From the sequence record SRR20825006_2113: a stretch of 64,000 nt of DNA. One strand, given 5' to 3'. Position numbers and translations under genes: made by a program. The notes under the pieces were generated by a model. That model did not search any database. It was given only the letters and a program-made list of their open reading frames with translations, and had not been told where the DNA came from. Within the stretch, counting starts at the first letter, position 1, and each line of letters starts with the position of its first letter. This document shows positions 5,195-22,882 of the stretch, in pieces.

Positions 5195-6451
5195 TCAAAC
5201 TTTAACCTCGATCAATTCGTTGAGGCGCGTAGTATAGCGTTTGGACAAATGATTTTGTTGCATTTTCCAGACTTTGGATAAATCTTGAGCACCAAATTTT
5301 ACTTGATCAAAGCAGTTCTTGTTAAGTCGGTCTATGGTTTGCATTAATACCTTATGCCTTGGATCTTCGTTGTAAAACAAACCGAGTTGCTTTTGCGTAT
5401 CCGGGGTTAATCCCATAACAATGATACCCGCCTTTTTATACTGATAGCCCTCGCGATATATGCGTTTTAAACCGGTCATTGCTGCATTGGTGATCACCAT
5501 AGTAGAGTTGGTTTCAAAAGGCATCTTTATAGAAATTCCATTTACATACTGTGGAAGGTCTTCCCGATGTTTATTAGTATGCAAAAAGAGATAGGCGATC
5601 TGGCAACAACTGTTTTGCTTGCGAAGCTTTAAACTCACTTTACTAGCATAAGTCGCCACGCGTTCACGAATATCTTCGAAGTCGGTATACATTTTTTCAA
5701 AAGATCGAGTAACCGCAATATTTTTCTTGACAGCAACCTCTTCTAAATCTAAAGTAGGTATTCCGGAAAGATCCCGTTGTAAACGTAAGCCTACAATACT
5801 CATCTCTTTACGCACATATTCATTTGGCAATTGTGTAAACTGCCAGGCATTAGTTACCTGAATGCTTTGTAGTTTTTTTTGATATTGACGTCCAACACCC
5901 CATACGTCTCCAATTTTCGTCCATTTTAAGCCCTTTTCGATCTTGAGTGGAGTATCAATCACATAGGTTCCTTTAGTGCGCTCAGAGAACTTCTTTGCAA
6001 TCTTATTGGCCACTTTAGCTAGGGATTTGGTAGGAGCAATGCCTATACTGATTGGAATACCTGTCGAGCGCTTAACCAGATCAATCATATTCCAACCGTA
6101 TTGCGTCAAATCGTAAAGATTAAAACCTTCCAATTTCAAAAAGATCTCATCGATAGAATAGACTTCAAGTTCCGGTGAGAAATTAGATAGAATATTCATT
6201 ACTCGAGCGCTCATATCTCCGTACAATGCGTAGTTAGATGAGAATACATTTATTTGATGTTTGCGCAGCAGTTGCTTGATCTGAAAAGCCGGTGCTCCCA
6301 TTGGGATTCCTAATTCTTTAGCCTCATTAGATCTTGCAATCACGCAGCCATCATTATTAGAAAGAACAACCACCGGCTGGTTATTCAAACTTGGATTAAA
6401 AACGCGCTCACAAGATGCATAGAAATTATTGCAGTCAATTAAAGCAAACAT
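5195..6451 (-). CDS. umuC: Y-family error-prone DNA polymerase V subunit UmuC (likely start MFALIDCNN at 6451)
   Basis: [31 protein letters not shown] catalytic motif, QLGLF clamp-binding-like motif, C-terminal [14 protein letters not shown]. Confidence 0.93.
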
Positions 6452-6452
6452 A

Positions 6453-6872
6453 TTACACTTCTTTAATGACATTGGTAACCACCCCCCAAATAAGAAACTC
6501 GTTATCTTTCGTAACCTTTATAGGCTGGTATTTTCGGTTCTCCGCAACCAGCCAAATTATATCCTTTTCAATTCGAATTCGTTTAACAGTAAATTCTCCG
6601 TCAATAAAGCATACAGCTATTTTTCCATTACGCGGTTCTAGGCTTTTATCAATGATCAATAGATCACCGTCGGATAGCCCTGCACCTTCCATAGAATCCC
6701 CTTTAACCCGTCCAAAAAAGGTAGCGTCCTTATTTCGAATATAAGCTGAATTTAAGTCAATCCCTTCATCTAAATGATCATCTGCAGGTGATGGAAAGCC
6801 ACACGACAACCCAGAAATAAACGGAATCTTTATACGCAGACCAACAATAGAGTTTAAAATAGCAATAGTCAT
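6453..6872 (-). CDS. umuD: UmuD-like S24 autoprotease, polymerase V accessory subunit
   Basis: CG|FPSPA autocleavage site, GDSM catalytic Ser, FTVKR catalytic Lys; directly upstream of umuC. Confidence 0.92.
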
Positions 6873-6877
6873 AAATT

Positions 6878-6926
6878 GGATTAATTCCTTTAATTAGGAT
6901 AAAATCCAAAAATAGAGAATTATTCC
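6878..6926. promoter_or_regulatory. Three tandem GGA-N5-TCC operator boxes (Bacteroidota SOS-box type) at 19-bp period
   Basis: GGATTAATTCC 6878-6888, GGATAAAATCC 6897-6907, AGAATTATTCC 6916-6926 (one mismatch), immediately upstream of umuD. Confidence 0.75.
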
Positions 6927-6938
6927 GTTTGCTTCAAA
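6907..6938 (-). promoter_or_regulatory. Bacteroidota housekeeping-sigma promoter for umuDC (-33 TTTG / -7 TAnnTTTG)
   Basis: Minus strand: TTTG (6938-6935), 20-nt spacer, TATTTTTG (6914-6907). A full match to the TTTG-N19-21-TAnnTTTG consensus. Confidence 0.7.
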
Positions 6939-7183
6939 GAAGGTTCAATCATTTTTTTCCAACATAAGTTACGAGCGAATTTCTCAGATTGATTCCTAAA
7001 GTAGAAAACCTGATCATTGCCCGTGTAGTCGTAGCCCGGCTTGGCAATACATAAGTGATACGTTTGGTTTCTGTAGGTTACCTGATAAATTGAGAAGGAA
7101 GGATCACGCTGAAGAAGCTCAACAATTGCATTCACATAGTAATTGTTAGCCAAATCATAAAGTTCTTTAGGTGTACGACTCAT
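6920..7183 (-). CDS. Small hypothetical protein, 87 aa; paralog of 8042..8302
   Basis: About 38/75 identical (hand count, ungapped) to the 8042..8302 product, sharing FARNLCWKKxIEP. Confidence 0.75.
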   Translation of the reverse strand: MSRTPKELYDLANNYYVNAIVELLQRDPSFSIYQVTYRNQTYHLCIAKPGYDYTGNDQVFYFRNQSEKFARNLCWKKMIEPSLKQTE

Positions 7184-7224
7184 AGTACTTAAAATTAATA
7201 AATTAGTCTTTAAATCAGAATTCT

Positions 7225-7974
7225 ATGTGCAACGCGACCAGTTTGACCAAGTTAAAAGAAGAAATTGTCAAGGCTTCTAAACGAAAGTTTGTTTACCCAG
7301 AAGTATATGAGCCTTACTACCACATCAATGGGTTTGGAGATAAGCTTTTGCATATTATACCTCAAGATGATGCAAAACGCATATGGCCGGCCGACTGGAA
7401 ACTAATTCCTGATTTTCATAAGGGAGCACCTACAGATTTTAAATACAATACACTCAATGCGCGAAGCGAAGATATTTTTACAAGCAACACTTACAAGAAT
7501 AGTGCTGTTTCCGGGAGATGCTTAATCTTGGCTGATGGCTTCTTTGAGCCGCATACCTACGTCAAACCCGGTACGAAAACTGAAAAGAAGCAGCCCTATT
7601 ATATCACGCTGCCGGAGCAAAAGTTATTCTACTTTGCCGGTCTTTTTAATAAGCTTGATGAAGAGTTGTACACGGTTACGATATTGACGTTGGATGCGAA
7701 TGATACAATGGCCAAAATTCATAATGCTAAAAAGCGTATGCCGCTCATCCTGGATGAACAATTCACTGAGAACTGGATCGATCCTACCTTGAACGAAAAG
7801 CAGATCAAAAACCTGATCAATGTAAGCTTCACCAATGAAGACCTTAACTACCACCCGGTTAGCAACGATATCTACAAACGGGGAGTAGATACCAACACCC
7901 CGGATATTCTTAAAGCAGTACCCGCCATAGATCCAGAAATGGATGAATCGAGCCCTACCTTATTTAAAGAGTAG
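7225..7974 (+). CDS. SOS response-associated peptidase (SRAP; YedK/HMCES family, abasic-site crosslinking)
   Basis: N-terminal Met-Cys2, NARSE, RCLILADGFFE, IHNAKKRMPLIL; adjacent to umuDC. Confidence 0.9.
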   Translation: MCNATSLTKLKEEIVKASKRKFVYPEVYEPYYHINGFGDKLLHIIPQDDAKRIWPADWKLIPDFHKGAPTDFKYNTLNARSEDIFTSNTYKNSAVSGRCLILADGFFEPHTYVKPGTKTEKKQPYYITLPEQKLFYFAGLFNKLDEELYTVTILTLDANDTMAKIHNAKKRMPLILDEQFTENWIDPTLNEKQIKNLINVSFTNEDLNYHPVSNDIYKRGVDTNTPDILKAVPAIDPEMDESSPTLFKE

Positions 7975-8302: not shown

Positions 8303-8618
8303 AAGCGGGTAAAGATATTGCTAAAAAGTATAAGATTAACATCCCGATATATAATTGTTGGTCGATTTTCCTTGGGTCGTTTAATTTATATTGATAATAC
8401 TTATGGATATTACAGCGCCTTTATATAGTGACTGACATTTTAAAATTTGGTAGTGTTCAAATTATGGAAGAGCTAAATTTAAAACGACCGTGAGCCTCAA
8501 GATAAATCACTCTGTTCTTTGTTTAAAATACCTTAGGGCTTCTCAATTGTATGATTCAATTAATTGAATTTAAGTCAATGACGAATGACTTTAAAACTAT
8601 AATAAGATTAAATCAGAT

Positions 8619-9524
8619 TTATTTATATTGATAATTTCCGGGACTTGTTCCTATTCTTTGGGAAAAGGTGGCTGAAAAATGTTGTACTGAAGAAAAACCG
8701 CAAGCGAAAGCAATGTCAGAGAGACTAAAATTGTCCGATTTAATCATTTCGATGGCTTTTTCGATCTTCAAATTAATAATAAAGCTATTTGGTGGGTAAC
8801 CTGTCAATTTTTTTACTTCATAAGTGAACTTAGTTTTACCCATTCCAAACTCAGTAGCCAAATCTTCTATGATCCATTTTTTGTTTAAATCTTGAGTGAC
8901 AACCTGAGTTAGTTTTTCAATAAAATTATCCTCAATAGATATTTGTTGTTCGCGTAAAGATAAATGTCTATGTAGTTCTATAAATAAGTTTTCAATGATG
9001 TTGCCTACCATTGTTTTAAAGCCTTTGTCTTGATTGCTTAACTCTTTTTCGAGTTCCACAAAATATTTTTTAAAAACCTTAGCCTTTTCAATTACAATCA
9101 CATTTTCTGAAGTCATCATTTTACCTAGGCTCTTTTGAAACTTTTTAGAAAGCTTTGTCCATTTTCCCAAGTTTAAAGGATGTGTAGTAGCAAATTCTTC
9201 AGGTTTGATAACAATCCAGTTTATGTGTCCAATATCCATTTTACCCTCTGGACTACCATTCAATTGCCAAGGGGTGGTGACTGATAAATTATCAGGTAGT
9301 AATTCTACTTCCGTATCGTCTACAACCCATTTATACTTACCGCTTTTTACAAAATGAATTTCTATTCCGTCGTTCAAATGAGGACGCATATTTTCATCCA
9401 TTCGAACTTTAGAAAATTTCATACTTCCAAATTGCCTAATATATGGAACACTTTTTAAAGGACCCATATCATCGGGATGCCACCATATTCCTTGATTTCC
9501 AACCTTATTATTTTTTGTCGACAT
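8619..9524 (-). CDS. AraC-family transcriptional regulator, divergent from the PUL
   Basis: N-terminal cupin-like ligand domain (PHLNDGIEIHFVKSG); C-terminal double HTH ending SLSDIAFACGFSSVQHFSATF...GTSP. Confidence 0.92.
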   Translation of the reverse strand: MSTKNNKVGNQGIWWHPDDMGPLKSVPYIRQFGSMKFSKVRMDENMRPHLNDGIEIHFVKSGKYKWVVDDTEVELLPDNLSVTTPWQLNGSPEGKMDIGHINWIVIKPEEFATTHPLNLGKWTKLSKKFQKSLGKMMTSENVIVIEKAKVFKKYFVELEKELSNQDKGFKTMVGNIIENLFIELHRHLSLREQQISIEDNFIEKLTQVVTQDLNKKWIIEDLATEFGMGKTKFTYEVKKLTGYPPNSFIINLKIEKAIEMIKSDNFSLSDIAFACGFSSVQHFSATFSQRIGTSPGNYQYK

Positions 9525-9580
9525 TAATAGTAAACTGAAAATTAAAAATTATTTGAAATTATAATAAAAACGAAAAACCT

Positions 9581-9609
9581 TTTATAAAATTGACCGTTGT
9601 TTAAAAATA
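9581..9609. promoter_or_regulatory. 29-bp element, copy 1, in the araC/PUL divergent intergenic region; putative regulator site
   Basis: TTTATAAAATTGACCGTTGTTTAAAAATA, 26/29 identical to 39000-39028. Confidence 0.65.
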
Positions 9610-9726
9610 TCATTAAATAATTTTCAAAATAATAATCTTGACAAGAATTTAAATGGTCCAGCAGAACTATCTATAAGAGACTAAGAAAACTTGTTAAGTT
9701 GAATTGAAAATTCAAACTTAGTAAAT

Positions 9727-12222
9727 ATGAGTATAACGAATCATCAACAAATTATTTCTATTCTGATTGTTTGTCTAACAATTTGGACTGCTGGTGCTGC
9801 TGAAATTTATGTAGCCCCCACAGGCAATGATAAAAATCGAGGTACAGAAAATGCACCTTTTGCTACAGTGAACAGGGCATTGCGTGAGGCTCGAGAATTA
9901 AGACGACTAAATCAAATTCAGAAAGATGAAGATATACGCATTCTATTAAAAGGGGGGACATACTATTTGAGTGAGCCTATTTTTGTACGTCCTGAAGATT
10001 CTGGTACTGAGACCAGCACTACATCGATTGAGTCGATGAATGAGGAAGCAGTGATTCTCTCCGGTGGAATGCAATTAAATAGTTGGAGACCCACTGAGTC
10101 AATTAGTACTGGCAATAATAATTTAATATGGGAGCTTGATGTGCCCCAAATTGCAGGAAACCTTTTAAAATTTAGACAGTTATGGGTCAATGCAAAAAAG
10201 GCTACACGGGCCAAAAGTACTTCTGGATCTCAGCTTGATCGTATTTTATCATGGGATAAGAATGATGGTACTTGTTGGATTTCGAACGAGGCAGCACCAT
10301 CAGAATTTGAGCCTGGTATGGAATTATTCATACAGCAATGGTGGGCTATAGCTAACCTGAGAATTTCAGGTATGGAAAGAAAACAAGATAGTACAAAATT
10401 AATTTTTGAAATGCCAGAACGGCGTATTCAAAACGAACATCCATGGCCGGCACCTTGGATATCAAAAAAGACCGGTAATTCTCCATTCTACATTACTAAT
10501 GCCAAACAATTTCTAGATGAACCTGGTGAGTGGTATTTCGATAAAAAGCTTTCAAAATTATTTTACCATCCTAGGCCAAGTGAAACACTAAGTGCAAATG
10601 CAGTAATTCCTATTCTTGATAATTTGGTCTTAATGAATGGAACAATAGATAGGCCCATTCATCATCTTCAATTTAAGAATATTTCTTTTCAGCACAGCAA
10701 TTGGACACGTCCTTCTGATTATGGACACGTTCCCCTGCAAGCAGGAATGTTTTTGTTAGATGCATATAAACTTCAAGTTCCAGGAACACCTGATAAGGCA
10801 GGATTGGAAAATCAAGCTTGGATTGGTAGACCTTCTGCTGCAATTGAAGCTAATTTTGTACACAATACATCGTTTATAGGATGTAGTTTTTTGCATCTTT
10901 CTTCAACTGGCCTTGATTACCATAGAGGGGTTAAGGATAACAGAATTCAAGGCAATCTCTTTAAGGATATAGGAGGTAGCGGAATTGTAATAGGTGAATT
11001 TTCAGAACCTGCCGTAGAGACTCACCTTCCTTTTAATCCAAGTGATCCTCGAGAATTATCAAGTGGGAATCTAATTTTAGATAATTTAATTACACAAGTA
11101 AGCACTGAGGACTGGGGAACAGTTGGTATTGCAGCAGGATTTGTGAATGATATTACCATAGCACACAATGAGATTTCAGAGGTTTCCTATACAGGTATCA
11201 GTTTAGGGTGGGGCTGGACTAAAACTAAAAACGCTATGCGAAATAATAAGATATTAGCTAATAAAATTCATCATTATGGTAAACACCTTTACGACGTAGC
11301 TGGTATTTATACCCTTTCCGCACAACCCAATAGTCGTATTGAAGGTAATATGGTTTATGATATCTATCAAAATAACTATGCACACGATCCCTATCATTGG
11401 TTTTATCTCTATACTGATGAAGGTTCTTCTTATATAACAGTAATTAACAATTGGGTACCTGCTCCTAAGTTTTTACAAAATGCCAATGGTCCTGGTAATA
11501 CATGGACTAATAACAATGCATCTTTAAATGAAAGCACCAAGCGAGGTGCCGGTGTAAGAGCACCCTATTCTAGTATGCTTGATCAGATTGTAACGGATAA
11601 AGAATGGCCTTTGAAAGAAGTGCCTAAATATTCGGCAATAGAGCTTATAGGTAAAGATTTAAATACTAAATCAATTAAAGACTTGGTAGCAACTAAAGGG
11701 TTTATTCATCCAGAAGTATACACGTGGAAAAATCGTGTAGTCGTTTATGGCTATCTCAATTATAAGGATGCGTTTATAAAAGAATTACATCAGCTATTTC
11801 CTAAGTCTAAAATTAAAAGCTACGATACTCCATTTTATGAGTATCAAAAGGCTGAGCAATGTATGGATTCAGCTATCGTCGATAGCTGGGATCATATAGT
11901 TTTGACTGCGAATTTGGTTGACGACCCTATAATGCAGCAAGAATATATGGATTATCACGCTACCCAATATCAAAAATGGCCAGAAGTCTCTGAGGGCTTT
12001 TGCAACGCAAACTTTCAACAATTACAAATTTTTAGAAATGGTAGACAACTGCTTCTTTTTATAAGTATTCCTAAAGGATCAGATTTTGAAAAACTCAACC
12101 CTTTAACTGTAAAAAATAATCCCAAAGTTGAGGAGTGGAACAGTTTAATGGCTCGATACCAAACTGGGATCAAGGGTACCAATAAAGGAGAAGTGTGGGT
12201 TGAATTTCAAAAAGTGGAATAA
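9727..12222 (+). CDS. GH141-like beta-helix glycosidase (alpha-L-fucosidase type) fused to a C-terminal L-rhamnose-mutarotase-like domain
   Basis: Signal peptide; IYVAPTGND...PFATV start; beta-helix repeats (YTGISLGWGW, DVAGIYTLS, YLYTDEGSS). The last ~110 aa (QEYMDYH...WPEV...QLQIFRNG...VEEWNSLM) resemble the RhaM/YiiL fold. Confidence 0.75.
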   Translation: MSITNHQQIISILIVCLTIWTAGAAEIYVAPTGNDKNRGTENAPFATVNRALREARELRRLNQIQKDEDIRILLKGGTYYLSEPIFVRPEDSGTETSTTSIESMNEEAVILSGGMQLNSWRPTESISTGNNNLIWELDVPQIAGNLLKFRQLWVNAKKATRAKSTSGSQLDRILSWDKNDGTCWISNEAAPSEFEPGMELFIQQWWAIANLRISGMERKQDSTKLIFEMPERRIQNEHPWPAPWISKKTGNSPFYITNAKQFLDEPGEWYFDKKLSKLFYHPRPSETLSANAVIPILDNLVLMNGTIDRPIHHLQFKNISFQHSNWTRPSDYGHVPLQAGMFLLDAYKLQVPGTPDKAGLENQAWIGRPSAAIEANFVHNTSFIGCSFLHLSSTGLDYHRGVKDNRIQGNLFKDIGGSGIVIGEFSEPAVETHLPFNPSDPRELSSGNLILDNLITQVSTEDWGTVGIAAGFVNDITIAHNEISEVSYTGISLGWGWTKTKNAMRNNKILANKIHHYGKHLYDVAGIYTLSAQPNSRIEGNMVYDIYQNNYAHDPYHWFYLYTDEGSSYITVINNWVPAPKFLQNANGPGNTWTNNNASLNESTKRGAGVRAPYSSMLDQIVTDKEWPLKEVPKYSAIELIGKDLNTKSIKDLVATKGFIHPEVYTWKNRVVVYGYLNYKDAFIKELHQLFPKSKIKSYDTPFYEYQKAEQCMDSAIVDSWDHIVLTANLVDDPIMQQEYMDYHATQYQKWPEVSEGFCNANFQQLQIFRNGRQLLLFISIPKGSDFEKLNPLTVKNNPKVEEWNSLMARYQTGIKGTNKGEVWVEFQKVE

Positions 12223-12250
12223 ATATTTTAACGCTTGAATTATTGTATTA

Positions 12251-14512
12251 ATGAAACAAACCAATCATCAGTTTTACGATTTCCTTGATTTTGATACGAA
12301 CGCAACCGAAAGTTGCGAAGAATCGAGAATATGGATAGCTGGTCAACCTATAGATATAAACTCCTATGGCTTAGGTGTGTCATTAACGATTCCATTTCAT
12401 TGTCAAAAAATGTCAAATGATTTTGAAGCTGATGACAGTATACCACCTAAAAACTATGAGATTTATTTACGCGCTTATGGTGAGCATGTTTTAAGAGTGT
12501 ATAGCAGTTTCGAAGGTATGGTGAATATGGATTCTCAAATGCTGCAATTTCACGAAGACATCGAAGAAATTGGTTTGTTTTATGAGATACAAGAGCATCA
12601 ATGGACCGTTGTAGATATTCACGGTGTAACAAGAGCAATTATAGATTTAGCAGATTGTGCAATCGATTACTGGAGTGATCTTTTGCCACCTCCGCAAAAG
12701 TCCTTTAAGGCTGTTTTTTACCCTGATGGAAAAAAAGGCATAACCTTAAGTAGTCACGATCATTTTTTTCCATCAAGAATAGACGCGATGCCACTTGCAT
12801 TTATATCTAAGAATGGTAATCCAAGTAGTGCTACTTTTTCTATAGAATCTGGGGCTGATGAGAAATTTGTAGGTACAGGAGAGCGCTTTGCTAAGCTTGA
12901 CCTTTCAGGACGCACCTTGCAATTGAAAAATCAGGATGGTCAAGGAGTAAATAATAAAAGGACCTATAAAAATGTGCCTTTCTATCTTTCCAGTAGGTTG
13001 TATGGCTTGTTTTTACATACATCAGCATATTGTAAATTTTCACTAGCCGATTTTTCTACGAGATCTGTTCAAATAATGGCCGAGAAACCAGAAATAGATA
13101 TGTTTCTGATTGGAGGAGATTCACCAGAACAAATCTTAAATGGTTATAAAAAAATTACAGGTTATCCTCAGAAACCACCGTTGTGGAGCTACGGTATTTG
13201 GATGAGTAAGATGACCTACTTTTCTGAACAAGAGGTTATGGAGGTTTGCGAAAAATTGCGGGATCAACAATTTCCATGTGATGTAATTCATTTAGATACT
13301 GGATGGTTTGAAACCGACTGGCTATGCGAATGGAAATTCAATGCTACACGATTTCCAAACCCCAAAAAATTTATTGACAATCTTAACAGACAGGGGTTTC
13401 GGCTAAGCTTATGGCAAATGCCCTATATCTCTGAAAAAGCTATTCAGTATCAAGAGGCTTCTGAAAATCAATTTATTGCAGAAGCTAAGCCAAAATCTGA
13501 CACGAGCAGTTCTAATTTTAGCAATTTAGATTATGCGGGTACAATCGACTTTACATTTCCCAAAGCAGTATTATGGTATAAAAATTTACTAAAAGAATTA
13601 TTTGATTTAGGTGTTAGTGCCATTAAAACAGATTTTGGAGAGGAAATACACTTAGATGCACAATATCATGGTATGCCGGCAAAACTTTTAAATAATATGT
13701 ATGCTTTACTCTATCAAAAGGCAGCATTTGAAATAACAAAGGATGCCACGGGGAATGGGATAATATGGGCACGTGCTGGCTGGGCAGGTTGTCAGCGTTA
13801 TCCTATACATTGGGGAGGTGATGCTGCGGCAAGTTGGGAGGGTATGGCCGGCTCTCTTAAAGGTGGATTACATATAGGACTATCGGGATTTGGATTTTGG
13901 AGCCATGATGTACCAGGGTTTCACGGGGTGCCTGATTTCATGAATTCTATAATACCTGATGATCTCTATGTACGCTGGACCCAATTCGGTGTATTCACAT
14001 CTCATATTCGCTATCACGGAACCTCTAAAAGAGAACCTTATGCATATCCCAATATTGCCCATATCATTAAAAAATGGTGGCGTCTTAGATATGCTTTAAT
14101 ACCCTATATAATTGAAGCTGGGGAGGCTTGTGAAAATTCAGGATTTCCCGTATTGCGGGCGTTATTGTTGCATCATCCTGAAGATCCAATGTGTTGGCAC
14201 ATTGACGATCAATATTATTTTGGTTCTTCATTTTTAGTCGCTCCAATAATGAGTGCGCATGACACTCGAGATATTTACTTCCCAGAAGGGCAATGGGTAA
14301 ATTTTTTCACGGGTGAAATGCTCCAAGGTGGAACTTGGATAAAGAAGTATAAAGCAGGATTGCAGGATATGCCAGTATGGATAAAAGAGGGAACTTCTAT
14401 TCCTTTGTATTTAGAAGAGGTTAGCTGCACTGATGATATGGACTTTATTAAGGTACAATCGTTTAAAATAGATCATAAATTTCAAGGGATTTGGAAACTT
14501 ATGGGGCTATAA
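12251..14512 (+). CDS. GH31 alpha-xylosidase (YicI-like), no signal peptide
   Basis: YKNVPFY, DVIHLDTGW, KTDFGE nucleophile motif, HWGGD acid/base, GFWSHDVPGF; hydrophilic N-terminus. Confidence 0.88.
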   Translation: MKQTNHQFYDFLDFDTNATESCEESRIWIAGQPIDINSYGLGVSLTIPFHCQKMSNDFEADDSIPPKNYEIYLRAYGEHVLRVYSSFEGMVNMDSQMLQFHEDIEEIGLFYEIQEHQWTVVDIHGVTRAIIDLADCAIDYWSDLLPPPQKSFKAVFYPDGKKGITLSSHDHFFPSRIDAMPLAFISKNGNPSSATFSIESGADEKFVGTGERFAKLDLSGRTLQLKNQDGQGVNNKRTYKNVPFYLSSRLYGLFLHTSAYCKFSLADFSTRSVQIMAEKPEIDMFLIGGDSPEQILNGYKKITGYPQKPPLWSYGIWMSKMTYFSEQEVMEVCEKLRDQQFPCDVIHLDTGWFETDWLCEWKFNATRFPNPKKFIDNLNRQGFRLSLWQMPYISEKAIQYQEASENQFIAEAKPKSDTSSSNFSNLDYAGTIDFTFPKAVLWYKNLLKELFDLGVSAIKTDFGEEIHLDAQYHGMPAKLLNNMYALLYQKAAFEITKDATGNGIIWARAGWAGCQRYPIHWGGDAAASWEGMAGSLKGGLHIGLSGFGFWSHDVPGFHGVPDFMNSIIPDDLYVRWTQFGVFTSHIRYHGTSKREPYAYPNIAHIIKKWWRLRYALIPYIIEAGEACENSGFPVLRALLLHHPEDPMCWHIDDQYYFGSSFLVAPIMSAHDTRDIYFPEGQWVNFFTGEMLQGGTWIKKYKAGLQDMPVWIKEGTSIPLYLEEVSCTDDMDFIKVQSFKIDHKFQGIWKLMGL

Positions 14513-14547
14513 ATAATAAAGAAGTGTATTACTAAAAATTAAAAATT

Positions 14548-15306
14548 ATGAAAACAGTTTTATCAGATAGTCAATTAGAACAGTATCAAGAAGAAGGATT
14601 TTGCATCCTCAAAAATGTAATTTCAAATGATTTACTAAATCGATTGCGGTCAGAATGTCAAAGATTCATCAAGGAAAAGGATGATGAGATGGACGCTAAA
14701 GGTGTGGAAGTTGACGAGATCAATCATAAGGGGAAACGCTATTTTATTGCGTTGCGTTACAAGGATAGTGAAACAATGCAGGATCTAATCTTCGGAAAAG
14801 AAATGGAAGAAATAGTACATAAAGTATTGGGAGATGAGGCTTATTTATTTTTAGAACAATTTGTAGTAAAAGCAGCAGATAAGGGTATGACTTTCTCGTG
14901 GCACCAAGACTCGGGTTATCTAGACTTTGATCATAAGCCGTATTTATCTGTATGGCTACCGCTAGATGATGTTTCAGAAGAAAATGGTACAGTTTATATG
15001 TTACCCTATAAAGAGGCCGGAACCCAAAAAAGGATTGACCATGTACTGCAAGAAGGCACCAACGATAAAATAGGATATTTTGGCGATAATCCTGGGGTGC
15101 CGGCTATTTTGAATGCTGGAGATGTTGCCATCTTTTCTAGTACGTGCTTTCATAGAAGTGGATCTAACAAAACCAATAAATCGCGCCGCGTATTATTAAT
15201 TCAATATTCAGCACAACCAATTGTTAAGGAAAATGGTGAGCCGCTTTACTGGGCAGAACCGTTTCTTAAAAATGGAGAAAACTTGAAAGCAGCAAAACTT
15301 TCTTAA
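14548..15306 (+). CDS. Phytanoyl-CoA dioxygenase (PhyH) family Fe(II)/2-oxoglutarate dioxygenase
   Basis: QLEQYQEEGF start, WHQD (HxD), WLPLDD...ENG, distal His in FHRSGSN, 2OG-binding Arg in SRRVL. Confidence 0.88.
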   Translation: MKTVLSDSQLEQYQEEGFCILKNVISNDLLNRLRSECQRFIKEKDDEMDAKGVEVDEINHKGKRYFIALRYKDSETMQDLIFGKEMEEIVHKVLGDEAYLFLEQFVVKAADKGMTFSWHQDSGYLDFDHKPYLSVWLPLDDVSEENGTVYMLPYKEAGTQKRIDHVLQEGTNDKIGYFGDNPGVPAILNAGDVAIFSSTCFHRSGSNKTNKSRRVLLIQYSAQPIVKENGEPLYWAEPFLKNGENLKAAKLS

Positions 15307-15347
15307 CCCATCTTATAGTCTACTTATTAAGATTTAAATAAATACCT

Positions 15348-16931
15348 ATGGAAATATACGAACAGTTATCATCACTTGATTTTGCTGTCGTAGGCTTATA
15401 TCTTATAATTCTTTTAGCCATTGGATTAGGAGTTAGCTTAAAGATCAAAAACACAAAAAATGACAATTTATTTTTAGCAAGCAACTCATTAAAGTGGCCA
15501 AGTATAGGTTTTACTATGTGGGGAACAAATGTTGGGCCATCAATGTTGATAGCCTCAGCAAGCATAGGTTATACTACTGGTATTGTAGCTGGCAATTTTG
15601 CTTGGTATGCGTTTTTATTTATTTTTCTCTTAGCTGTAGTTTTTGCCCCAAGATACCTTGGAGCTAAAGTACAAACCCTTCCCGAATTTATGGGAAAACG
15701 CTTTGGTGCTTCAACACAGAATATTCTGGCTTGGTATACCATTGTTACAATCTTAATAAGTTGGCTTTCCCTAACGCTTTTTGCAGGAGGAATTTTAATT
15801 CAACAAATATTGAATATTCCCATGTGGATCGCAATCGTTTTATTACTGGGTATTTCAGCATTTTTTGCAATGGCAGGAGGTCTTAAAGCAATTGCATTTA
15901 CCAATGTTTTTCAGATGATCCTTTTAATTGTGGTTTCCATAATTCTTACGGTTATTGCTTTTAAAGAGGTAGGTAGTCTGAGCCTTATTCAAGAGAGAAT
16001 CCCATCAGATTACTGGAACCTATTTAGGTCTAGTGATGATGCCGATTATCCTTGGGTGGCTATTGTACTTGGATATCCAGTAATGGGGGTGTGGTTCTGG
16101 TGCACCGATCAGTCTATGGTGCAATCCGTATTGGGAGCTAAAAATATTAAGCAAGGTCAATTAGGAGCTAATTTTACAGGTTGGTTAAAGATTTTAGATG
16201 TGCCTTTATTTATTATTCCAGGGATATTGTGTTTTATACTTTTTCCTGATCTGAATAATCCTGATGAGGCTTACATGACTATGGTTACCCAACTACTACC
16301 CTCTGGATTAAAAGGGCTCGTAATGGCAGTCCTAATCGCAGCACTTATAAGTACCATCGACTCTGCTCTTAATGCTTTAAGCACAGTATTTACAATGGAT
16401 ATTTATGTGAAAAAGTATAAACCAGAAGCCAATCATAAACAAGTAATAAGCATAGGTCGAGTTGTAACTGTATTAGGAGCACTTCTAGCTGTTTTTATTA
16501 CTCTGGCTATCAATAGTATTAAAGGACTTAATTTATTTGACGTATTTCAATCTGTACTTGGTTTTATAGCTCCACCAATGGCTGTTGTATTTCTTTTTGG
16601 AGTATTGTGGTCGGGCACAACAAGGAGGGCCGCAGATGCCATTTTAATTTTTGGTACGGCATTGAGCTTAGGGGTTGGGATTTTATTCTTATGGGTGTTT
16701 CCTAAAGAGGTCTATACCTTTTGGCCACACTTCCTCTTACTTTCATTCTATCTGTTTATAGTACTTGCGATAGGTATAATTGTCTTATCGCTTCTGGACT
16801 CCAGAAGATCTGATACGCTTAATACACTACTCCCAGTAGAAAAAGTGCCAATGCGTTCAAAGGCTAAAGTACTATGGGGAGCGCTCTTTGTAGTAATGAT
16901 CAGCCTGTATATAATTTTTAATGGACATTAG
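15348..16931 (+). CDS. Sodium:solute symporter (SSS/SLC5, sugar type)
   Basis: Many TM helices; TLPEFMGKRFG, GGLKAIAFT, WFWCTDQSMVQSVL, STIDSALN motifs. Confidence 0.92.
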   Translation: MEIYEQLSSLDFAVVGLYLIILLAIGLGVSLKIKNTKNDNLFLASNSLKWPSIGFTMWGTNVGPSMLIASASIGYTTGIVAGNFAWYAFLFIFLLAVVFAPRYLGAKVQTLPEFMGKRFGASTQNILAWYTIVTILISWLSLTLFAGGILIQQILNIPMWIAIVLLLGISAFFAMAGGLKAIAFTNVFQMILLIVVSIILTVIAFKEVGSLSLIQERIPSDYWNLFRSSDDADYPWVAIVLGYPVMGVWFWCTDQSMVQSVLGAKNIKQGQLGANFTGWLKILDVPLFIIPGILCFILFPDLNNPDEAYMTMVTQLLPSGLKGLVMAVLIAALISTIDSALNALSTVFTMDIYVKKYKPEANHKQVISIGRVVTVLGALLAVFITLAINSIKGLNLFDVFQSVLGFIAPPMAVVFLFGVLWSGTTRRAADAILIFGTALSLGVGILFLWVFPKEVYTFWPHFLLLSFYLFIVLAIGIIVLSLLDSRRSDTLNTLLPVEKVPMRSKAKVLWGALFVVMISLYIIFNGH

Positions 16932-17820
16932 GATGAAAAATAACTTCAATACAAATGATGGAACTTCTAATAAACCTTATCTACGTGTAGATATCAATTA
17001 CAATACGTGCTCAGACCTGCCTTCCTTTTCTAAAGGGCCAAAGGGAGATGATTTACTGAAACATAAGGCGATTGCACAAGCGGGGTTTGGAGGCATTCAA
17101 GATGGTATTCCGCAATTATGTCAAGATCTTAATCTTAATCTGACAGCCCACGCTAGGGTAAATCAAATAGGAGATTTGAAAGACCTCTTACCGGTATGGA
17201 AATCTAATAATTACAATTGTGCTACGGTACATTTAGGCTGGGGTATAGAGTCCGATTACCAATGTAACGCTTTGGTTGATTATATTTTAAATACTTCTGT
17301 CAATTATGACTTTCCTATTTACATAGAGACACACCGAGCTACTGTTACTCAAGATATGTTTAGAACGGTAGCACTAATAGAACGTTTTCCTGAAATCCGC
17401 TTCAATGCTGATTTCTCACACTGGTATACTGGTCAAGAAATGGTTTATGGAGGTATTGAAATGAAATGGAAATTTTTAGAACCACTCTTTGATCGCGTTC
17501 GATTTTTACACGGTCGGATTGGGAATCCTGGATGTATACAGGTTGCAATTAAAAATCGTGGTCAAGCAGAATTTATTGAACATTTCAAAGAAATGTGGAT
17601 ACGATCATTTTTAGGTTTTTTAAAATCAGCCAAGCCTGGGGATTACATTGTATTTACAGTAGAATTACTTAGTTCTCAAATTTATTATGCTCAAACCTTA
17701 ATGGATGCTAAAGGTAACCTGATCGAAGATGGAGACCGCTGGGAAGAGGCCTTGCATTACAAATCTATAGCGGAATCTTGCTGGGAAGAGGCACAAAATC
17801 GTTTTAATGTTTTACAGTAA
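16921..17820 (+). CDS. Xylose-isomerase-like TIM-barrel protein (sugar isomerase/epimerase family), cytoplasmic; alternative start 16933
   Basis: Metal-ligand pattern ETHR...NADFSHW...FLHGRIG...TVE; no signal peptide. Confidence 0.65.
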   Translation: MDIRMKNNFNTNDGTSNKPYLRVDINYNTCSDLPSFSKGPKGDDLLKHKAIAQAGFGGIQDGIPQLCQDLNLNLTAHARVNQIGDLKDLLPVWKSNNYNCATVHLGWGIESDYQCNALVDYILNTSVNYDFPIYIETHRATVTQDMFRTVALIERFPEIRFNADFSHWYTGQEMVYGGIEMKWKFLEPLFDRVRFLHGRIGNPGCIQVAIKNRGQAEFIEHFKEMWIRSFLGFLKSAKPGDYIVFTVELLSSQIYYAQTLMDAKGNLIEDGDRWEEALHYKSIAESCWEEAQNRFNVLQ

Positions 17821-20013
17821 TTGATCATGATTAGCTTTAAAAAATATAAACGTATTTTATTAGGTATTGGAGTTCTACTTCTTTATAGTCAATTAGGTAT
17901 TTCTCAGAGTACTCAAGCAACGTGGATCTGGTATCCTGGGGATTTTGAGATTGATTTAGCTAATAAAATGCAAAACCGCCGCACCGAACGTGGTGCTTTT
18001 TTCCCTGTTTTCTGGAAAACTGATAGTCACTATAATTTAGTTGATTTTCATAAGGTGTTTGATTTGTCTCAGCCTGAAGAAGTAACTATAGCTGTAGAGG
18101 GAACCTATAATATCAAAATAGATGGAAAAGCCATTGCTGGCTTTCCAAAGACAATTACTATACCTAAGGGACATCATAAATTGAGTCTTAAAGTATACAA
18201 TCAAGCACATGTACCTACGATCTACATTAATGGTCGAACTGTAAAAACTGATTCTAGTTGGCTAGTTACTTTTGAGGACAAAGAGTGGATCGACCAAAGC
18301 GGAAAAGTATCGGATCAGTCGGGAACCACTTGGTTGAATGCAGGTTCTGCAAATTTAAATGAAATTACAGATTTACCTTCACAATATGCGTTACCGGTAA
18401 AACTGTTGAAACCAATTCAATCTGAAGTCCAACAAGATGGAATACTCTATGATTTCGGAAAGGAAACTTTTGGTTTTTTAAAACTACTTGGAGTGCAGGG
18501 TCAAGGTCAAGTAGCTATCTATTATGGTGAATCTAAAGAGGAAGCCCTTTCTACTTCCCACTGTGAAACATTGGATCAGATAGAGATTCAGAACAGCATA
18601 CCGCGTGATCATACCTTGAATTTATCTAAAGCCTTTAGATATGTATATGTAGTTCCTTCAAATGGAGTACAACTGGATTCTATAGCCATGGATTTTGAAT
18701 ATGCACCACTTGAAGATAAAGGAAATTTCATCTGCTCTGATGCGCAAGTCAATGAGATCTATGAGGTAGCTAAGTATACCTTTCATCTTACTGCGCGTGA
18801 ATTTTTTATCGATGGAATTAAGCGTGATCGTTGGATCTGGAGTGGTGATGCCAATCAAAGTTATTTAATGAATTACTACCTAACCAATGACTCCCCAACG
18901 GTAGAGCGTACTATGATAGCCTTACGGGGAAAAGACCCAGTAACAGCACATATAAATACCATAATGGATTACTCGCTGTATTGGTTTTTGTCGATTTATG
19001 ATTATTACCTCTATAGTGGAGATCCTTCATTTATAAAACAATTTTATCCACGGATGAAATCGCTCATGACATACTGCTTATCACGTCGGGATCAAAATGG
19101 AATGCTTCAAGGACTTGCCGGGGATTGGGTATTTATAGATTGGGCAGAGGGTCTTAGTAAAGAAGGTGCAGTAAGTTTTGAGCAAGTTTTGTTTGCACGC
19201 AGCTTAGAAGCGATGGCATTATGTGCAGAGATAGCTAACTATCCAAATGAAGCGTTGGAATATCAAGAAATGGCAGAAACTCTTAAATCTAAAATCTTTG
19301 ATATGTATTGGAATTCAGAAAAAGGTGCTCTAGTACACAATGCTATCAGTGGTAAGCCTACAGATCACGTCACACGCTATGCCAATATGTTTGGAATTTT
19401 CTTCGATTACTTCAACGAAGACCAAAAGTTACAGGTTAAAAATAAAGTCCTCTTAAATGCTGATGTGCCCAAGATTGTAACTCCGTATATGCGATTTTAT
19501 GAGTTGGAAGCACTTTGTGCTATGAATGAACAAGCCTATGTTTTAGATCAAATAAAATCCTATTGGGGTGGTATGTTAGAATTGGGAGCAACTTCATTTT
19601 GGGAAGAATATAATCCAGATAAAAAGGGTATCGAACATTTAGAGATGTATGGTAGACCTTTTGGTAAAAGCTTATGTCACGCTTGGGGAGCGAGTCCAAT
19701 TTACTTGCTCGGAAAATACTTCCTAGGTGTAAAGCCTGTCAATCCAGGGTATACTACTTATCAAGTAAAACCGCAATTGGGTGGACTACAATGGATGGAG
19801 GGTACGGTTCCTACTCCAAATGGCCAAATCAATATCTATTGCTCTTCCAAAGAGATTAAAGTAAGAGCAGATGAGGGTATAGGGACATTATATATTAACA
19901 GTGTCAATAAGCCGAAGACCAATACGGGTCAAATAGTACACTTAGGGGGCGACAATTACACCCTTGAGCTTCGCCCGAACACCAACTATTTAATTAAATA
20001 TAAAGCGCTATAA
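17821..20013 (+). CDS. GH78 alpha-L-rhamnosidase (start may be ATG 17827)
   Basis: DFGKETFG, DGIKRDRWIWSGD, GATSFWE, SLCHAWGASP; signal peptide. Confidence 0.88.
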   Translation: MIMISFKKYKRILLGIGVLLLYSQLGISQSTQATWIWYPGDFEIDLANKMQNRRTERGAFFPVFWKTDSHYNLVDFHKVFDLSQPEEVTIAVEGTYNIKIDGKAIAGFPKTITIPKGHHKLSLKVYNQAHVPTIYINGRTVKTDSSWLVTFEDKEWIDQSGKVSDQSGTTWLNAGSANLNEITDLPSQYALPVKLLKPIQSEVQQDGILYDFGKETFGFLKLLGVQGQGQVAIYYGESKEEALSTSHCETLDQIEIQNSIPRDHTLNLSKAFRYVYVVPSNGVQLDSIAMDFEYAPLEDKGNFICSDAQVNEIYEVAKYTFHLTAREFFIDGIKRDRWIWSGDANQSYLMNYYLTNDSPTVERTMIALRGKDPVTAHINTIMDYSLYWFLSIYDYYLYSGDPSFIKQFYPRMKSLMTYCLSRRDQNGMLQGLAGDWVFIDWAEGLSKEGAVSFEQVLFARSLEAMALCAEIANYPNEALEYQEMAETLKSKIFDMYWNSEKGALVHNAISGKPTDHVTRYANMFGIFFDYFNEDQKLQVKNKVLLNADVPKIVTPYMRFYELEALCAMNEQAYVLDQIKSYWGGMLELGATSFWEEYNPDKKGIEHLEMYGRPFGKSLCHAWGASPIYLLGKYFLGVKPVNPGYTTYQVKPQLGGLQWMEGTVPTPNGQINIYCSSKEIKVRADEGIGTLYINSVNKPKTNTGQIVHLGGDNYTLELRPNTNYLIKYKAL

Positions 20014-20020
20014 ACCTACT

Positions 20021-22882
20021 ATGAAGCTAATTCAAAATTACCTAAGACTTTTATTCGTATTAATGTGCTTGTCAGTGGTACACGCTCAGGATACCCAAAT
20101 TCAGTTTTTATCAGGAACTGGGTATCAAGATACCAAAGATTGGGAATTTAAGATTTCTAAGGGACGTAATAGTGACAAGTGGTCAACTATAGGTGTACCT
20201 TCAGTATGGGAGCAGGAAGGTTTTGGAAAGTATCAATATGGAATAAAATTTTATGGTAAGCCTTTTCCTGATGGTATTGCAGACGAAGTAGGAATGTATA
20301 AATATGCTTTTGAAGTTCCCAAAAATTGGGAAAATAAAAGGGTGAATATTGTCTTTGATGGGGTCATGACCGATGCTGAAGTTCAAATTAATGGACGTTC
20401 CGCTGGAGCGGTTCATCAAGGTGGTTTCTACCGATTTAAATATGATATAACGGATCTATTAGAATTTGGTAAATCTAATTTACTTGAGGTTACTGTTAGT
20501 AAAGAATCTAAAAATGCGAGTGTAAACCTTGCAGAACGCAGAGCAGATTATTGGAATTTTGGAGGAATTTTTAGACCGGTTTTTTTAGAAGCATTACCAG
20601 CGACTCACATAGCGCGTAGTGCCTTACGAGCGGAAGCTGATGGTACTTTTGAGGCAGCTGTTTTTTTAGGAAATGGCACTCAGGGACTAGCAGCACAGGT
20701 TAGTATTTATGAGAAATCAGGTAAAAAGATTGGCAAAACACTATCCGGTCAACTTGCTGACGGGAGTGATAAAATTCTGCTGTCTGGAAGCTTTGAAAAT
20801 ATAAAAACGTGGACTTCTGAAACACCCAATTTATATGAAGTAAGAATTGAACTTTTAAAGGATGAGAAGGTTATTCACAAGATTAACGAGACAATAGGAT
20901 TCAGGACCATAGAAATAAAAAAAGGGGATGGGATCTATGTTAATGGCACACGTGTGTTGATGAAAGGTATCAATAGGCATAGTTTCTGGCCTGAATCTGG
21001 ACGTACCTTGAATAAGCAGCTTAATTATGATGACGCTCGCCTTATTAAAGAGATGAATATGAATGCTGTACGATTGTCACACTATCCTCCAGATCCTGAA
21101 TTTTTAGCAGCTTGCGATGAATTAGGCTTGTATGTGATGGACGAATTAGGGGGTTGGCACGGACATTATGATGATGCTGTCGGAAAAAAACTTGTCAGAG
21201 AAACAGTAATTCGAGACCTAAATCATCCTAGCATTATTTTTTGGTCAAATGGTAATGAAGGAGGATGGAATACAAATTTAGATGATCAATTTGCTATTTG
21301 GGATATTCAAAATAGACCAGTACTGCATCCACAGCAAGAATTAAATGGGGTTGAAACCATGCATTATCGCTCCTACGGAGAAACTTTAGAGTATTTAAGA
21401 GGGGATCATATTTTTATGCCTACTGAGTATTTGCATGGTCTGTATGATGGTGGGCATGGAGCCGGATTTGATGATTATTGGGAAGTATTGCGCAATCATC
21501 CTCGAAGCGGAGGAGGTTATTTGTGGGTTTTTGCTGATGAAGGCGTTGCTCGAACAGATCAAGATGGACGAATTGATAACCAAGGAAATTTTGGAGCGGA
21601 TGGTATAGTTGGACCTCACCACGAAAAAGAAGGTAGTTTTTTTACTGTAAAAGAAGTATGGTCCCCAGTAATGATCACGACACCACATAAGCTTACACAA
21701 GACTTTAATGGCGAATTTGATATTGAGAATAGATATTTTTTTACTGATTTATCAGAATGTAGAGTTGAGTGGGAATTAGCAAATTTTGCAAAGCCTGATG
21801 ATGCTCAAATTGGACATATATCAATCCAAAAAAATACGGTTGAGAATTTTCAGTTACCCCCCCAAACTACCGGAAAACTGAAAATAAATTTACCTAAAGA
21901 CTGGAAGAAGGCAGATGTACTTTATTTGAAAGTTATCGATTCTCAGGGAAAAGAGTTATGGACTTGGAGTTATACTTGGGATAAGGAATCTCAACTTCCT
22001 ACGAGCACCTTGTCGAGTACGCCTACTTTAGTAGAGACTGAAGCATTGTATCAAGTTACTGCTTCTCAAACGGTTTTAAAATTTACTAAGCATGATGGAA
22101 AATTAGCTAGTGTTACTCAGGCAGGAAAAACAATAGGTTTTAAAAACGGTCCTCAGATTATAATGGCGCGTCGTGGAGATCGAACATTAGATGGTACAAT
22201 TAATCCAGATTTTGAAAAAGGAGAGGACCGTATCTACAAAGAATTTGCTTGTATTGACGAAGAAGTAAACTGCTCGGAAAGTTTAATTAACCTAACGGCT
22301 AAAAAGGTTGAGAATTTGATAAAAATTGAAGCCTCTTATCACGGCATTCTACAAAAGGTACTATGGACAATACATCCCGACGGCCTATTGCAAATGGATT
22401 ATGAATATGAATATAATGGTGTGACAGAGTTAGCCGGTATTTACTTTGATTATCCTGAATCAATGATGCGCTCTAAAAAATGGCTAGGTGCAGGCCCTTA
22501 TCGTGTTTGGCAAAATAGATTAAAGGGAACAACACTAGATGTTTGGGAAAATGAATACAACGATCCTATACCAGGAGAGTCCTTCAATTATCCTGAATTT
22601 AAGGGGTATTTTAGAGACTGGCAATGGGCTCAATTTAAAACTACCGAAGGTACGATAGAGCTATTTAACAAATCTTCAGATACTTACTTAGGTGTTTATT
22701 CACCTCGTGATGGCAGAGATGCCTTATTGTATACACTTCCACAAACAGGTATTGCGGTATTTGACGTTATTCCTGCTGTGCGTAATAAAGTTAATGCTAC
22801 AGATTTAGTTGGACCTTCTTCGCAACCAAGATGGCTTCACGGAACACAGCGCCACACGCTTTATTTAAAATTCAAAAACTAA
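20021..22882 (+). CDS. GH2 glycosidase (beta-galactosidase/glucuronidase type)
   Basis: DYWNFGGIFRPV, KGINRH, NAVRLSHYP, NHPSIIFWSNGNE; signal peptide. Confidence 0.9.
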   Translation: MKLIQNYLRLLFVLMCLSVVHAQDTQIQFLSGTGYQDTKDWEFKISKGRNSDKWSTIGVPSVWEQEGFGKYQYGIKFYGKPFPDGIADEVGMYKYAFEVPKNWENKRVNIVFDGVMTDAEVQINGRSAGAVHQGGFYRFKYDITDLLEFGKSNLLEVTVSKESKNASVNLAERRADYWNFGGIFRPVFLEALPATHIARSALRAEADGTFEAAVFLGNGTQGLAAQVSIYEKSGKKIGKTLSGQLADGSDKILLSGSFENIKTWTSETPNLYEVRIELLKDEKVIHKINETIGFRTIEIKKGDGIYVNGTRVLMKGINRHSFWPESGRTLNKQLNYDDARLIKEMNMNAVRLSHYPPDPEFLAACDELGLYVMDELGGWHGHYDDAVGKKLVRETVIRDLNHPSIIFWSNGNEGGWNTNLDDQFAIWDIQNRPVLHPQQELNGVETMHYRSYGETLEYLRGDHIFMPTEYLHGLYDGGHGAGFDDYWEVLRNHPRSGGGYLWVFADEGVARTDQDGRIDNQGNFGADGIVGPHHEKEGSFFTVKEVWSPVMITTPHKLTQDFNGEFDIENRYFFTDLSECRVEWELANFAKPDDAQIGHISIQKNTVENFQLPPQTTGKLKINLPKDWKKADVLYLKVIDSQGKELWTWSYTWDKESQLPTSTLSSTPTLVETEALYQVTASQTVLKFTKHDGKLASVTQAGKTIGFKNGPQIIMARRGDRTLDGTINPDFEKGEDRIYKEFACIDEEVNCSESLINLTAKKVENLIKIEASYHGILQKVLWTIHPDGLLQMDYEYEYNGVTELAGIYFDYPESMMRSKKWLGAGPYRVWQNRLKGTTLDVWENEYNDPIPGESFNYPEFKGYFRDWQWAQFKTTEGTIELFNKSSDTYLGVYSPRDGRDALLYTLPQTGIAVFDVIPAVRNKVNATDLVGPSSQPRWLHGTQRHTLYLKFKN

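Follow-up and report, generated by a model that had tools for sequence, protein, structure and literature searches.

A PhyH-family dioxygenase in a conserved gene module of a Bacteroidota rhamnogalacturonan II utilisation locus: candidate genes for the salvage of methyl-ether sugars

No plant polysaccharide known is more complex than rhamnogalacturonan II (RG-II), and in the published account of its breakdown by bacteria one linkage and the fate of the methyl-ether sugars are not explained. In Bacteroides thetaiotaomicron, BT1002, a member of glycoside hydrolase family 141 (GH141), liberates 2-O-methyl-D-xylose α1,3-linked to L-fucose (2-O-Me-Xyl-α1,3-Fuc; accessible text of PMC10154630), and this disaccharide holds the one RG-II linkage that the organism is described as leaving uncleaved in the accessible part of PMC7939467. 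The question of which genes could take over from there is raised by a stretch of DNA of 64,000 nucleotides from sequence record SRR20825006_2113 (the whole stretch being referred to as the window; approximately 37% G+C, host group Bacteroidota). Whereas the B. thetaiotaomicron system stops at the disaccharide, the GH141 gene of the window is directly followed by genes for a GH31 α-glycosidase, a PhyH-family Fe(II)/2-oxoglutarate (2OG) dioxygenase, a sodium:solute symporter (SSS) and a protein of 299 residues, U299 (positions 9727 to 17820). We consider it slightly more likely than not (roughly 0.55) that the five genes act as a conserved module in the salvage of RG-II end products that carry methyl ethers; they are candidates for the last step of RG-II breakdown.

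The module consists of five plus-strand genes separated by gaps of 28, 35 and 41 bp and then an 11-bp overlap, as the sequence-only reading of this DNA had described in speaking of five adjacent co-oriented genes, and 0 bp separate the fifth gene from the next, a GH78 gene starting at 17821. A scan of positions 8500-20100 identified no intergenic terminator inside the module, nor any sigma-70 promoter or terminator scoring above shuffles, Bacteroidota promoters lying outside the models of that scan. From position 9727 onwards, all plus-strand open reading frames (ORFs) of at least 100 residues form a single co-oriented array that runs through to the window's end. The first 55 residues of all 28 window proteins were scanned for hydrophobicity, a heuristic standing in for a signal-peptide predictor; a hydrophobic N-terminal segment was present in GH141 and missing only in GH31, PhyH, U299 and an AraC-family regulator. 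The scan agrees with the earlier statement that GH31, PhyH and the fifth protein lack signal peptides, unlike the other enzymes of the locus.

Annotation with Pfam and NCBIfam showed the array to be an RG-II-type polysaccharide utilisation locus (PUL), which is where the module had been placed before, with the remainder of the locus running on the plus strand from 17821 to 63999. Its genes are those of GH141, GH78, two GH2, GH137-like, GH106, a SASA esterase, DUF5703 (GH139-type), GH127, SusC/SusD, DUF3826, DUF6298, a GH140 apiosidase, GH28, GH43, a BT_1020-like protein, a second GH78, an esterase, GH95 and an MGH1-like hydrolase. The assignment to RG-II rests on SusC/D occurring together with GH139, GH140, GH137-like, GH106, GH127, BT_1020-like, GH95, GH78, GH28 and DUF3826, where the Pfam names are in part presumed to correspond to the CAZy families GH139 and GH137. 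The RG-II system of B. thetaiotaomicron (BT0960-BT1030, with BT1002 and BT0984) has the same carbohydrate-active enzyme families, GH141 and the same SusC/D-based type of locus. The GH139-type gene of the window (DUF5703; 32150-34471, plus strand; Pfam/NCBIfam) belongs to the family of BT0984, a 2-O-methyl-L-fucosidase according to the accessible text of PMC10154630.

The first gene of the module (9727..12222, plus strand) encodes a periplasmic GH141 protein of 831 residues that was matched by the GH141_M profile (PF21231, 1.4e-56) and of which residues 23-616 align to BT_1002 (PDB 5mqp, E 1.1e-187), so that its earlier naming as a BT1002-type enzyme stands. Both catalytic Asp residues, which lie in the motifs YDVAG and YTDEG, are kept and correspond to D523 and D564, numbers which hold only if the PDB chain numbering is offset by five residues. 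At the C-terminus (residues ~637-831, window 11635-12222) lies a rhaM-like, mutarotase-type domain (4.7e-11), which is found as a free-standing ORF of ~230 residues beside GH31 in the related loci L095, L097, L098 and L099. The domain may determine the anomeric form in which the reducing-end fucose is presented for uptake.

The second gene (12251..14512, plus strand) encodes a cytoplasmic GH31 α-glycosidase of 753 residues (PF01055, 8.8e-84, 282 bits). It belongs to the same GH31 clade as the Escherichia coli α-xylosidase YicI (E 1e-107), with the KTDFGE nucleophile and HWGGD acid/base motifs common to both and aligned, and it matches PDB 5f7c over its full length (E=0, 1083 bits). To our knowledge, the sole α-D-xylo/gluco-configured residue of RG-II is the 2-O-methyl-xylose freed by BT1002-type GH141 enzymes.

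The third gene (14548..15306, plus strand) encodes a PhyH protein of 252 residues that matches PF05721 across profile positions 1-213 of 213 (1.1e-28; 101.4 bits against a cut-off of 22). H119-x-D121, H202 and R213/R214 were invariant across 21 orthologs, and the iron triad and Arg align with the HQD, H and R of PHYH 2a1x, whose ligand roles we take to be those of the equivalent residues. The orthologous group was found to be tight, with 55-89% identity across Bacteroidota among the 120 matches listed. In the genome nearest to the window (G001) the PhyH of the module is the only PhyH-family gene, and no PhyH-family match was found in 14 control genomes. This protein is proposed to be an O2-dependent sugar O-demethylase.

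A scan for PhyH, with one genome per species, gave 281 relatives, from which 80 loci were kept, 47 from Bacteroidota (Flavobacteriaceae, Cyclobacteriaceae, Sphingobacteriaceae, Chitinophagaceae, Saprospiraceae, Prolixibacteraceae and Saccharicrinis) and 33 from other phyla. The nearest relative among the 80 was Leeuwenhoekiella marinoflava (L001), with a PhyH 89% identical to that of the window. Synteny was counted by tblastn with all window proteins on the 42 Bacteroidota loci that span 12 kb or more, five short ones being excluded. SSS was found in all 42 of these, GH31 in 41, U299 in 34 and GH141 in 29. At least one RG-II-type gene was present in 40/42 and at least two in 36/42; co-occurrence with RG-II genes, on which the earlier scheme had been staked beforehand, did not fail. 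Fourteen of the 42 have an ortholog of the AraC-family regulator upstream, which in the window is divergent from the module (8619..9524, minus strand; Pfam HTH_18 2.2e-17). Two accessory genes not present in the window recur among the 42 loci, a GFO/IDH/MocA oxidoreductase in 24 (L003:3727-4794, L015:8799-9920 and 22 further loci) and a major facilitator superfamily (MFS) sugar carrier in 11. A phylum-wide sample of 401 genomes around G001 was uninformative, with PhyH and GH31 orthologs each in G001 alone; six further PhyH matches in it had 45-51% identity.

These counts bear on the simplest alternative, namely that the genes are an ordinary cassette for the uptake of α-glucosides or α-xylosides that merely adjoins the RG-II locus, with PhyH having an unrelated housekeeping role. 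The SSS is similar to generic sugar symporters and the nearest solved GH31 structure was deposited as an 'alpha-glucosidase', as such a cassette would have it. Set against this are the presence of the module among RG-II-type genes in those 40 loci, which span Flavobacteriaceae, Cyclobacteriaceae, Sphingobacteriaceae, Prolixibacteraceae and Saprospiraceae, the adjacent BT1002-like GH141 (29/42 PhyH loci, and 7/11 of the PhyH-poor loci described below), and the single PhyH-family gene of G001 being that of the module. We regard this explanation as highly improbable.

Evidence on the nature of the chemical step came from relatives in another order. Methyl ethers are removed by two general biochemical solutions, an oxygenase and corrinoid methyl transfer. 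In three of the PhyH loci (L032, L035 and L038, from Saccharicrinis and Sunxiuqinia), a B12-binding protein, a methyltransferase of the uroporphyrinogen decarboxylase (URO-D) family, CobW and a MetH-type activation domain are encoded beside the module, and GH31 orthologs were therefore sought throughout the order of Saccharicrinis. They were identified in 12 of 401 genomes, with 56-61% identity. Counts for these variant loci derive from tblastn on 11 fetched contexts of the 12 genomes, with that of genome G402, of the same order, left out. All 11 contained GH31 followed by a protein of 354 residues, U354, and by SSS (56-68% identical to that of the window), and a BT1002-like GH141 (at least 39% identity) was nearby in seven. 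PhyH was present in only one (L095) and U299 in none. Furthermore, no PhyH was found in the ten whole genomes behind the PhyH-less variant loci using a query that does match G001. A B12-binding protein or domain lay within the fetched stretch in 7/11, and three of the four genomes with a B12-less variant locus have an ortholog elsewhere (58-63% identity). In genomes G786 and G001 the B12-binding query gave only a weak match within a long frame of more than 900 residues, which is taken to be MetH.

U354 has no Pfam family and was not found in the window or in G001. Its model (pLDDT 92) best matches the MtaA methyltransferase of Methanosarcina mazei, uroporphyrinogen decarboxylases and MetE, and a protein-atlas match agrees with an MtaA/URO-D-type fold; the protein thus models as an MtaA/URO-D-fold methyltransferase. 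We take this fold to be that of O-demethylase methyltransferases and not of a methanol methyltransferase. In four loci, the gene directly after the GH31 ortholog encodes a fusion of 1000-1250 residues with U354 at its N-terminus (L096:11110-14859, L100:5793-8807, L101:5813-8821 and L105:11174-14227). The further domains in L096, L100 and L105 are homocysteine S-methyltransferase (PF02574), B12-binding_2 and B12-binding; the same layout in L101 was seen by tblastn only. The fusion has a MetH-like architecture in which the pterin-binding module is replaced. Elsewhere, a stand-alone corrinoid set of B12-binding protein, URO-D methyltransferase, MetH-type activation domain and sometimes CobW adjoins the GH31-SSS core (L032:14746-18338, L035, L038, L097:13938-16309 and L099:987-3567), and L032, L035, L038 and L095 hold corrinoid genes and PhyH together. 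The corrinoid variant genes of L096 and L100 have L-fucose isomerase, a rhaM-like mutarotase and an MFS carrier as neighbours, and these fucose-catabolic genes fit the fucose half of the disaccharide.

The occurrence of an oxygenase or a corrinoid set at one locus position is the pattern expected if the missing step is the removal of a methyl ether. The proposal that the dioxygenase removes a methyl group gains independent support in this way, as in relatives without PhyH the GH31-SSS core adjoins a methyl-transfer set. At one and the same position of the RG-II locus, Bacteroidota may have two interchangeable systems that strip methyl ethers from sugars, one of the PhyH type and one MetH-like, transferring the methyl group via B12 to homocysteine or another thiol. 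We hold this generalization tentatively, at rather less than even odds. The oxygenase-bearing lineages are presumably aerobes and the loci with both systems presumably those of facultative anaerobes.

Under the salvage reading, secreted GH141 would release 2-O-Me-D-Xyl-α1,3-L-Fuc in the periplasm, as BT1002 does, the role being assigned here by orthology. The SSS (15348..16931, plus strand; SSF 7.9e-54, PF00474 183.5 bits, and TIGR00813 259.5 bits against a cut-off of 184) would bring the disaccharide into the cytoplasm, perhaps along with free 2-O-methyl-fucose from the GH139 of the locus. There, PhyH would strip the 2-O-methyl group using O2 and GH31 would cleave the α-xyloside, with U299, a TIM barrel of keto-sugar type, probably acting downstream of PhyH. 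In the corrinoid variant, cobalamin-dependent methyl transfer would offer an oxygen-free way to the same job on the same GH141-GH31-SSS core. We consider demethylation before hydrolysis by GH31 to be no less likely than the opposite order; the 2-O-methyl group removes the 2-OH that retaining α-glycosidases need, which would explain why periplasmic enzymes leave the linkage intact.

Several observations weigh against the salvage reading. The first group concerns GH31, which had been called a YicI-type α-xylosidase on account of KTDFGE. The motif is there, yet the class was too strong, as the protein scores 468 bits against a threshold of 606 for the NCBIfam α-xylosidase equivalog NF007940, has T-G at the site of the C-F of YicI (C307-F308, which we take to be the determinants of xylose specificity), and falls in a separate subgroup with its own structure, 5f7c, the one labelled 'Alpha-glucosidase'. 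By sequence it is not a YicI equivalog. Furthermore, 5f7c is presumably a B. thetaiotaomicron protein, from an organism that does not cleave the disaccharide, and a U354 in that organism would call for an explanation. The solved enzyme may itself have the RG-II disaccharide as its natural substrate. As to the import of a disaccharide, SSS carriers mostly move monosaccharides. Chance could explain the split between oxygenase and corrinoid set, which runs along phylogenetic lines. Pfam-based annotation of the window found no gene for formaldehyde detoxification. Lastly, PhyH orthologs of other phyla (49-56% identity, 33 loci) have a GH31 of at least 40% identity in only one of the 33, and because they almost never share the context of the module, the family may act on other substrates or on a broader range of them.

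This last observation also favours a role for the module with another RG-II compound, in which PhyH would hydroxylate aceric acid, apiose, 3-deoxy-D-lyxo-heptulosaric acid (Dha) or 3-deoxy-D-manno-octulosonic acid (Kdo), L-galactose or a deoxy position, and the corrinoid proteins would serve methionine synthesis from a different methyl donor, such as the methanol that pectin methyl esters yield. The PDB neighbours of PhyH are functionally diverse (hydroxylases, halogenase-like enzymes and sugar-tailoring oxygenases), and in the 21 other-phyla loci scanned with Pfam the neighbours are often sugar-related, namely FGGY kinases, enolase-superfamily dehydratases, short-chain dehydrogenases/reductases and ABC permeases, along with AraC-type regulators in 8/21, and not GH31. 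RG-II loci also free methanol through esterases, as described in the accessible part of PMC7939467. The Bacteroidota loci speak otherwise, since GH31 stands beside PhyH in 41/42 and beside U354 in 11/11, and neither the only α-D-xylo/gluco residue that we know of in RG-II nor the fold of U354, presumed to be of the O-demethylase type, suits such a compound. We consider this alternative unlikely. The other-phyla loci (L047-L080) come from Chloroflexota, Planctomycetota, Verrucomicrobiota, Armatimonadota and others, and L056, L068, L070, L073 and L077 each have two or three PhyH paralogs.

The fifth gene (16921..17820, plus strand) encodes the cytoplasmic protein U299, which had no match in Pfam (even at E<=10, with the PF01261 profile giving none), NCBIfam or PDB sequences. 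Its AlphaFold (AF2) model (pLDDT 87, pTM 0.88) has the fold of a divergent xylose-isomerase-like TIM barrel (Foldseek E ~5e-8, TM 0.5-0.59; VIA Z 14-17), with IolE 9zmu as the top match (Z 17.0, rmsd 3.2 over 232 residues), followed by ketose 3-epimerases, C-glycoside deglycosidases and a 3-keto-glucoside lyase and hydratase. As the best matches tie at Z 14-17, no subfamily can be named. E136, D164, H197 and E248 were invariant across 22 orthologs, and U299 shares these four acidic/His residues, spaced as in the metal-dependent members, with IolE, ketose 3-epimerases and 3-keto-glycoside lyases, while differing from xylose-isomerase-like TIM barrels in its missing PF01261 match and an identity of 9-16%. 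From the model, we infer that U299 acts on a keto-sugar or ketose. Of the TIM isomerase named by the sequence-only reading, the barrel was confirmed by AlphaFold, Foldseek and VIA, whereas the isomerase activity goes further than these comparisons do. In L032 and L035 the position of U299 is occupied by a secreted AP_endonuc_2 protein, which was rejected as an ortholog (16% identity).

U299 is tied to PhyH and not to the corrinoid variant, which is left unexplained unless the product of PhyH needs further processing. If hydroxylation of the methyl group frees the sugar spontaneously, the co-occurrence of the two has no explanation, and this too belongs with the points against the salvage reading in the form given above. 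One way around it would be for PhyH to hydroxylate the methoxy-bearing ring C2, the resulting hemiketal yielding methanol and a 2-keto sugar, which U299 and, where present, the GFO oxidoreductase would convert back to a normal sugar. U299 accompanies PhyH in 34/42 loci and no GH31-U354 locus, U299 and/or the GFO oxidoreductase are in 40/42 PhyH loci, the structural neighbours of U299 (IolE, 3-keto-glycoside lyase/hydratase and ketose epimerases) all act next to a carbonyl, and no gene for handling formaldehyde was found in the window. However, known Fe/2OG O-demethylases, as we understand them, attack the methyl group. The same attack is described for P450 enzymes in the accessible text of PMC6292453. 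The GFO oxidoreductase, moreover, is missing from the window and also occurs in the PhyH-less locus L098. Attack on the ring carbon seems distinctly unlikely. Demethylation and salvage as first sketched remain the best explanation of the five genes, a scheme that is partly supported by these results and is amended here on the order of steps, the role of the TIM barrel and the class of GH31.

Oxidative demethylation of a sugar within a PUL has a precedent in the CYP236A-type cytochrome P450 acting on 6-O-methyl-D-galactose from marine porphyran, which is likewise O2-dependent and yields formaldehyde (accessible parts of PMC6292453 and PMC9400963). That system differs in using a haem P450 with redox partners in place of an Fe(II)/2OG PhyH protein, and in the sugar, the position and the polysaccharide; no P450 was found in the window. 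The components of the corrinoid O-demethylases of anaerobes and of MetH find counterparts in the URO-D/MtaA-fold protein, B12-binding protein, URO-D methyltransferase and MetH-type activation domain of the relatives, which are not in the window. Unlike in those systems, four loci of the relatives encode the donor-side domain in one protein with homocysteine S-methyltransferase and a B12 domain. A literature search conducted outside subscription journals and supplements, in which hyphenated spellings could partly be missed, returned nothing on 2OG dioxygenases, demethylases or corrinoid proteins in RG-II loci, and no description of the fusion of U354, homocysteine S-methyltransferase and B12 domains was found in the literature searched. 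Novelty appears to lie in the use of a PhyH-type enzyme, in this substrate and in the cobalamin counterpart, oxidative sugar demethylation in a PUL being already known for the P450. If the proposal is correct, Fe/2OG enzymes would be a third class for sugar O-demethylation. If both systems exist, the last gap in RG-II catabolism would be closed, and anaerobic bacteria of the gut and of sediments would make methionine with methyl groups taken from plant-wall ethers, with facultative anaerobes keeping both systems; the cobalamin-dependent counterpart could tie dietary pectin to B12 use and methionine supply.

Outside the module, a UmuD-like S24 peptidase, a UmuC-like polymerase and an SRAP protein are encoded at 5195-7974, and these, like an HNH gene among the upstream genes, are unrelated to the adjoining locus. 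Two PUL proteins with signal-like N-termini, encoded at 34479-36944 (821 residues) and 44531-46258 (575 residues), have no Pfam match at E<=0.001; orthologs of both exist in related RG-II loci such as L036, L043, L045 and L031. The listed TTG start of the GH95 ORF (60081-62675) overlaps the preceding esterase gene by 134 bp. As a signal-like segment follows an internal Met ~40 residues in, the true start of GH95 probably lies downstream.

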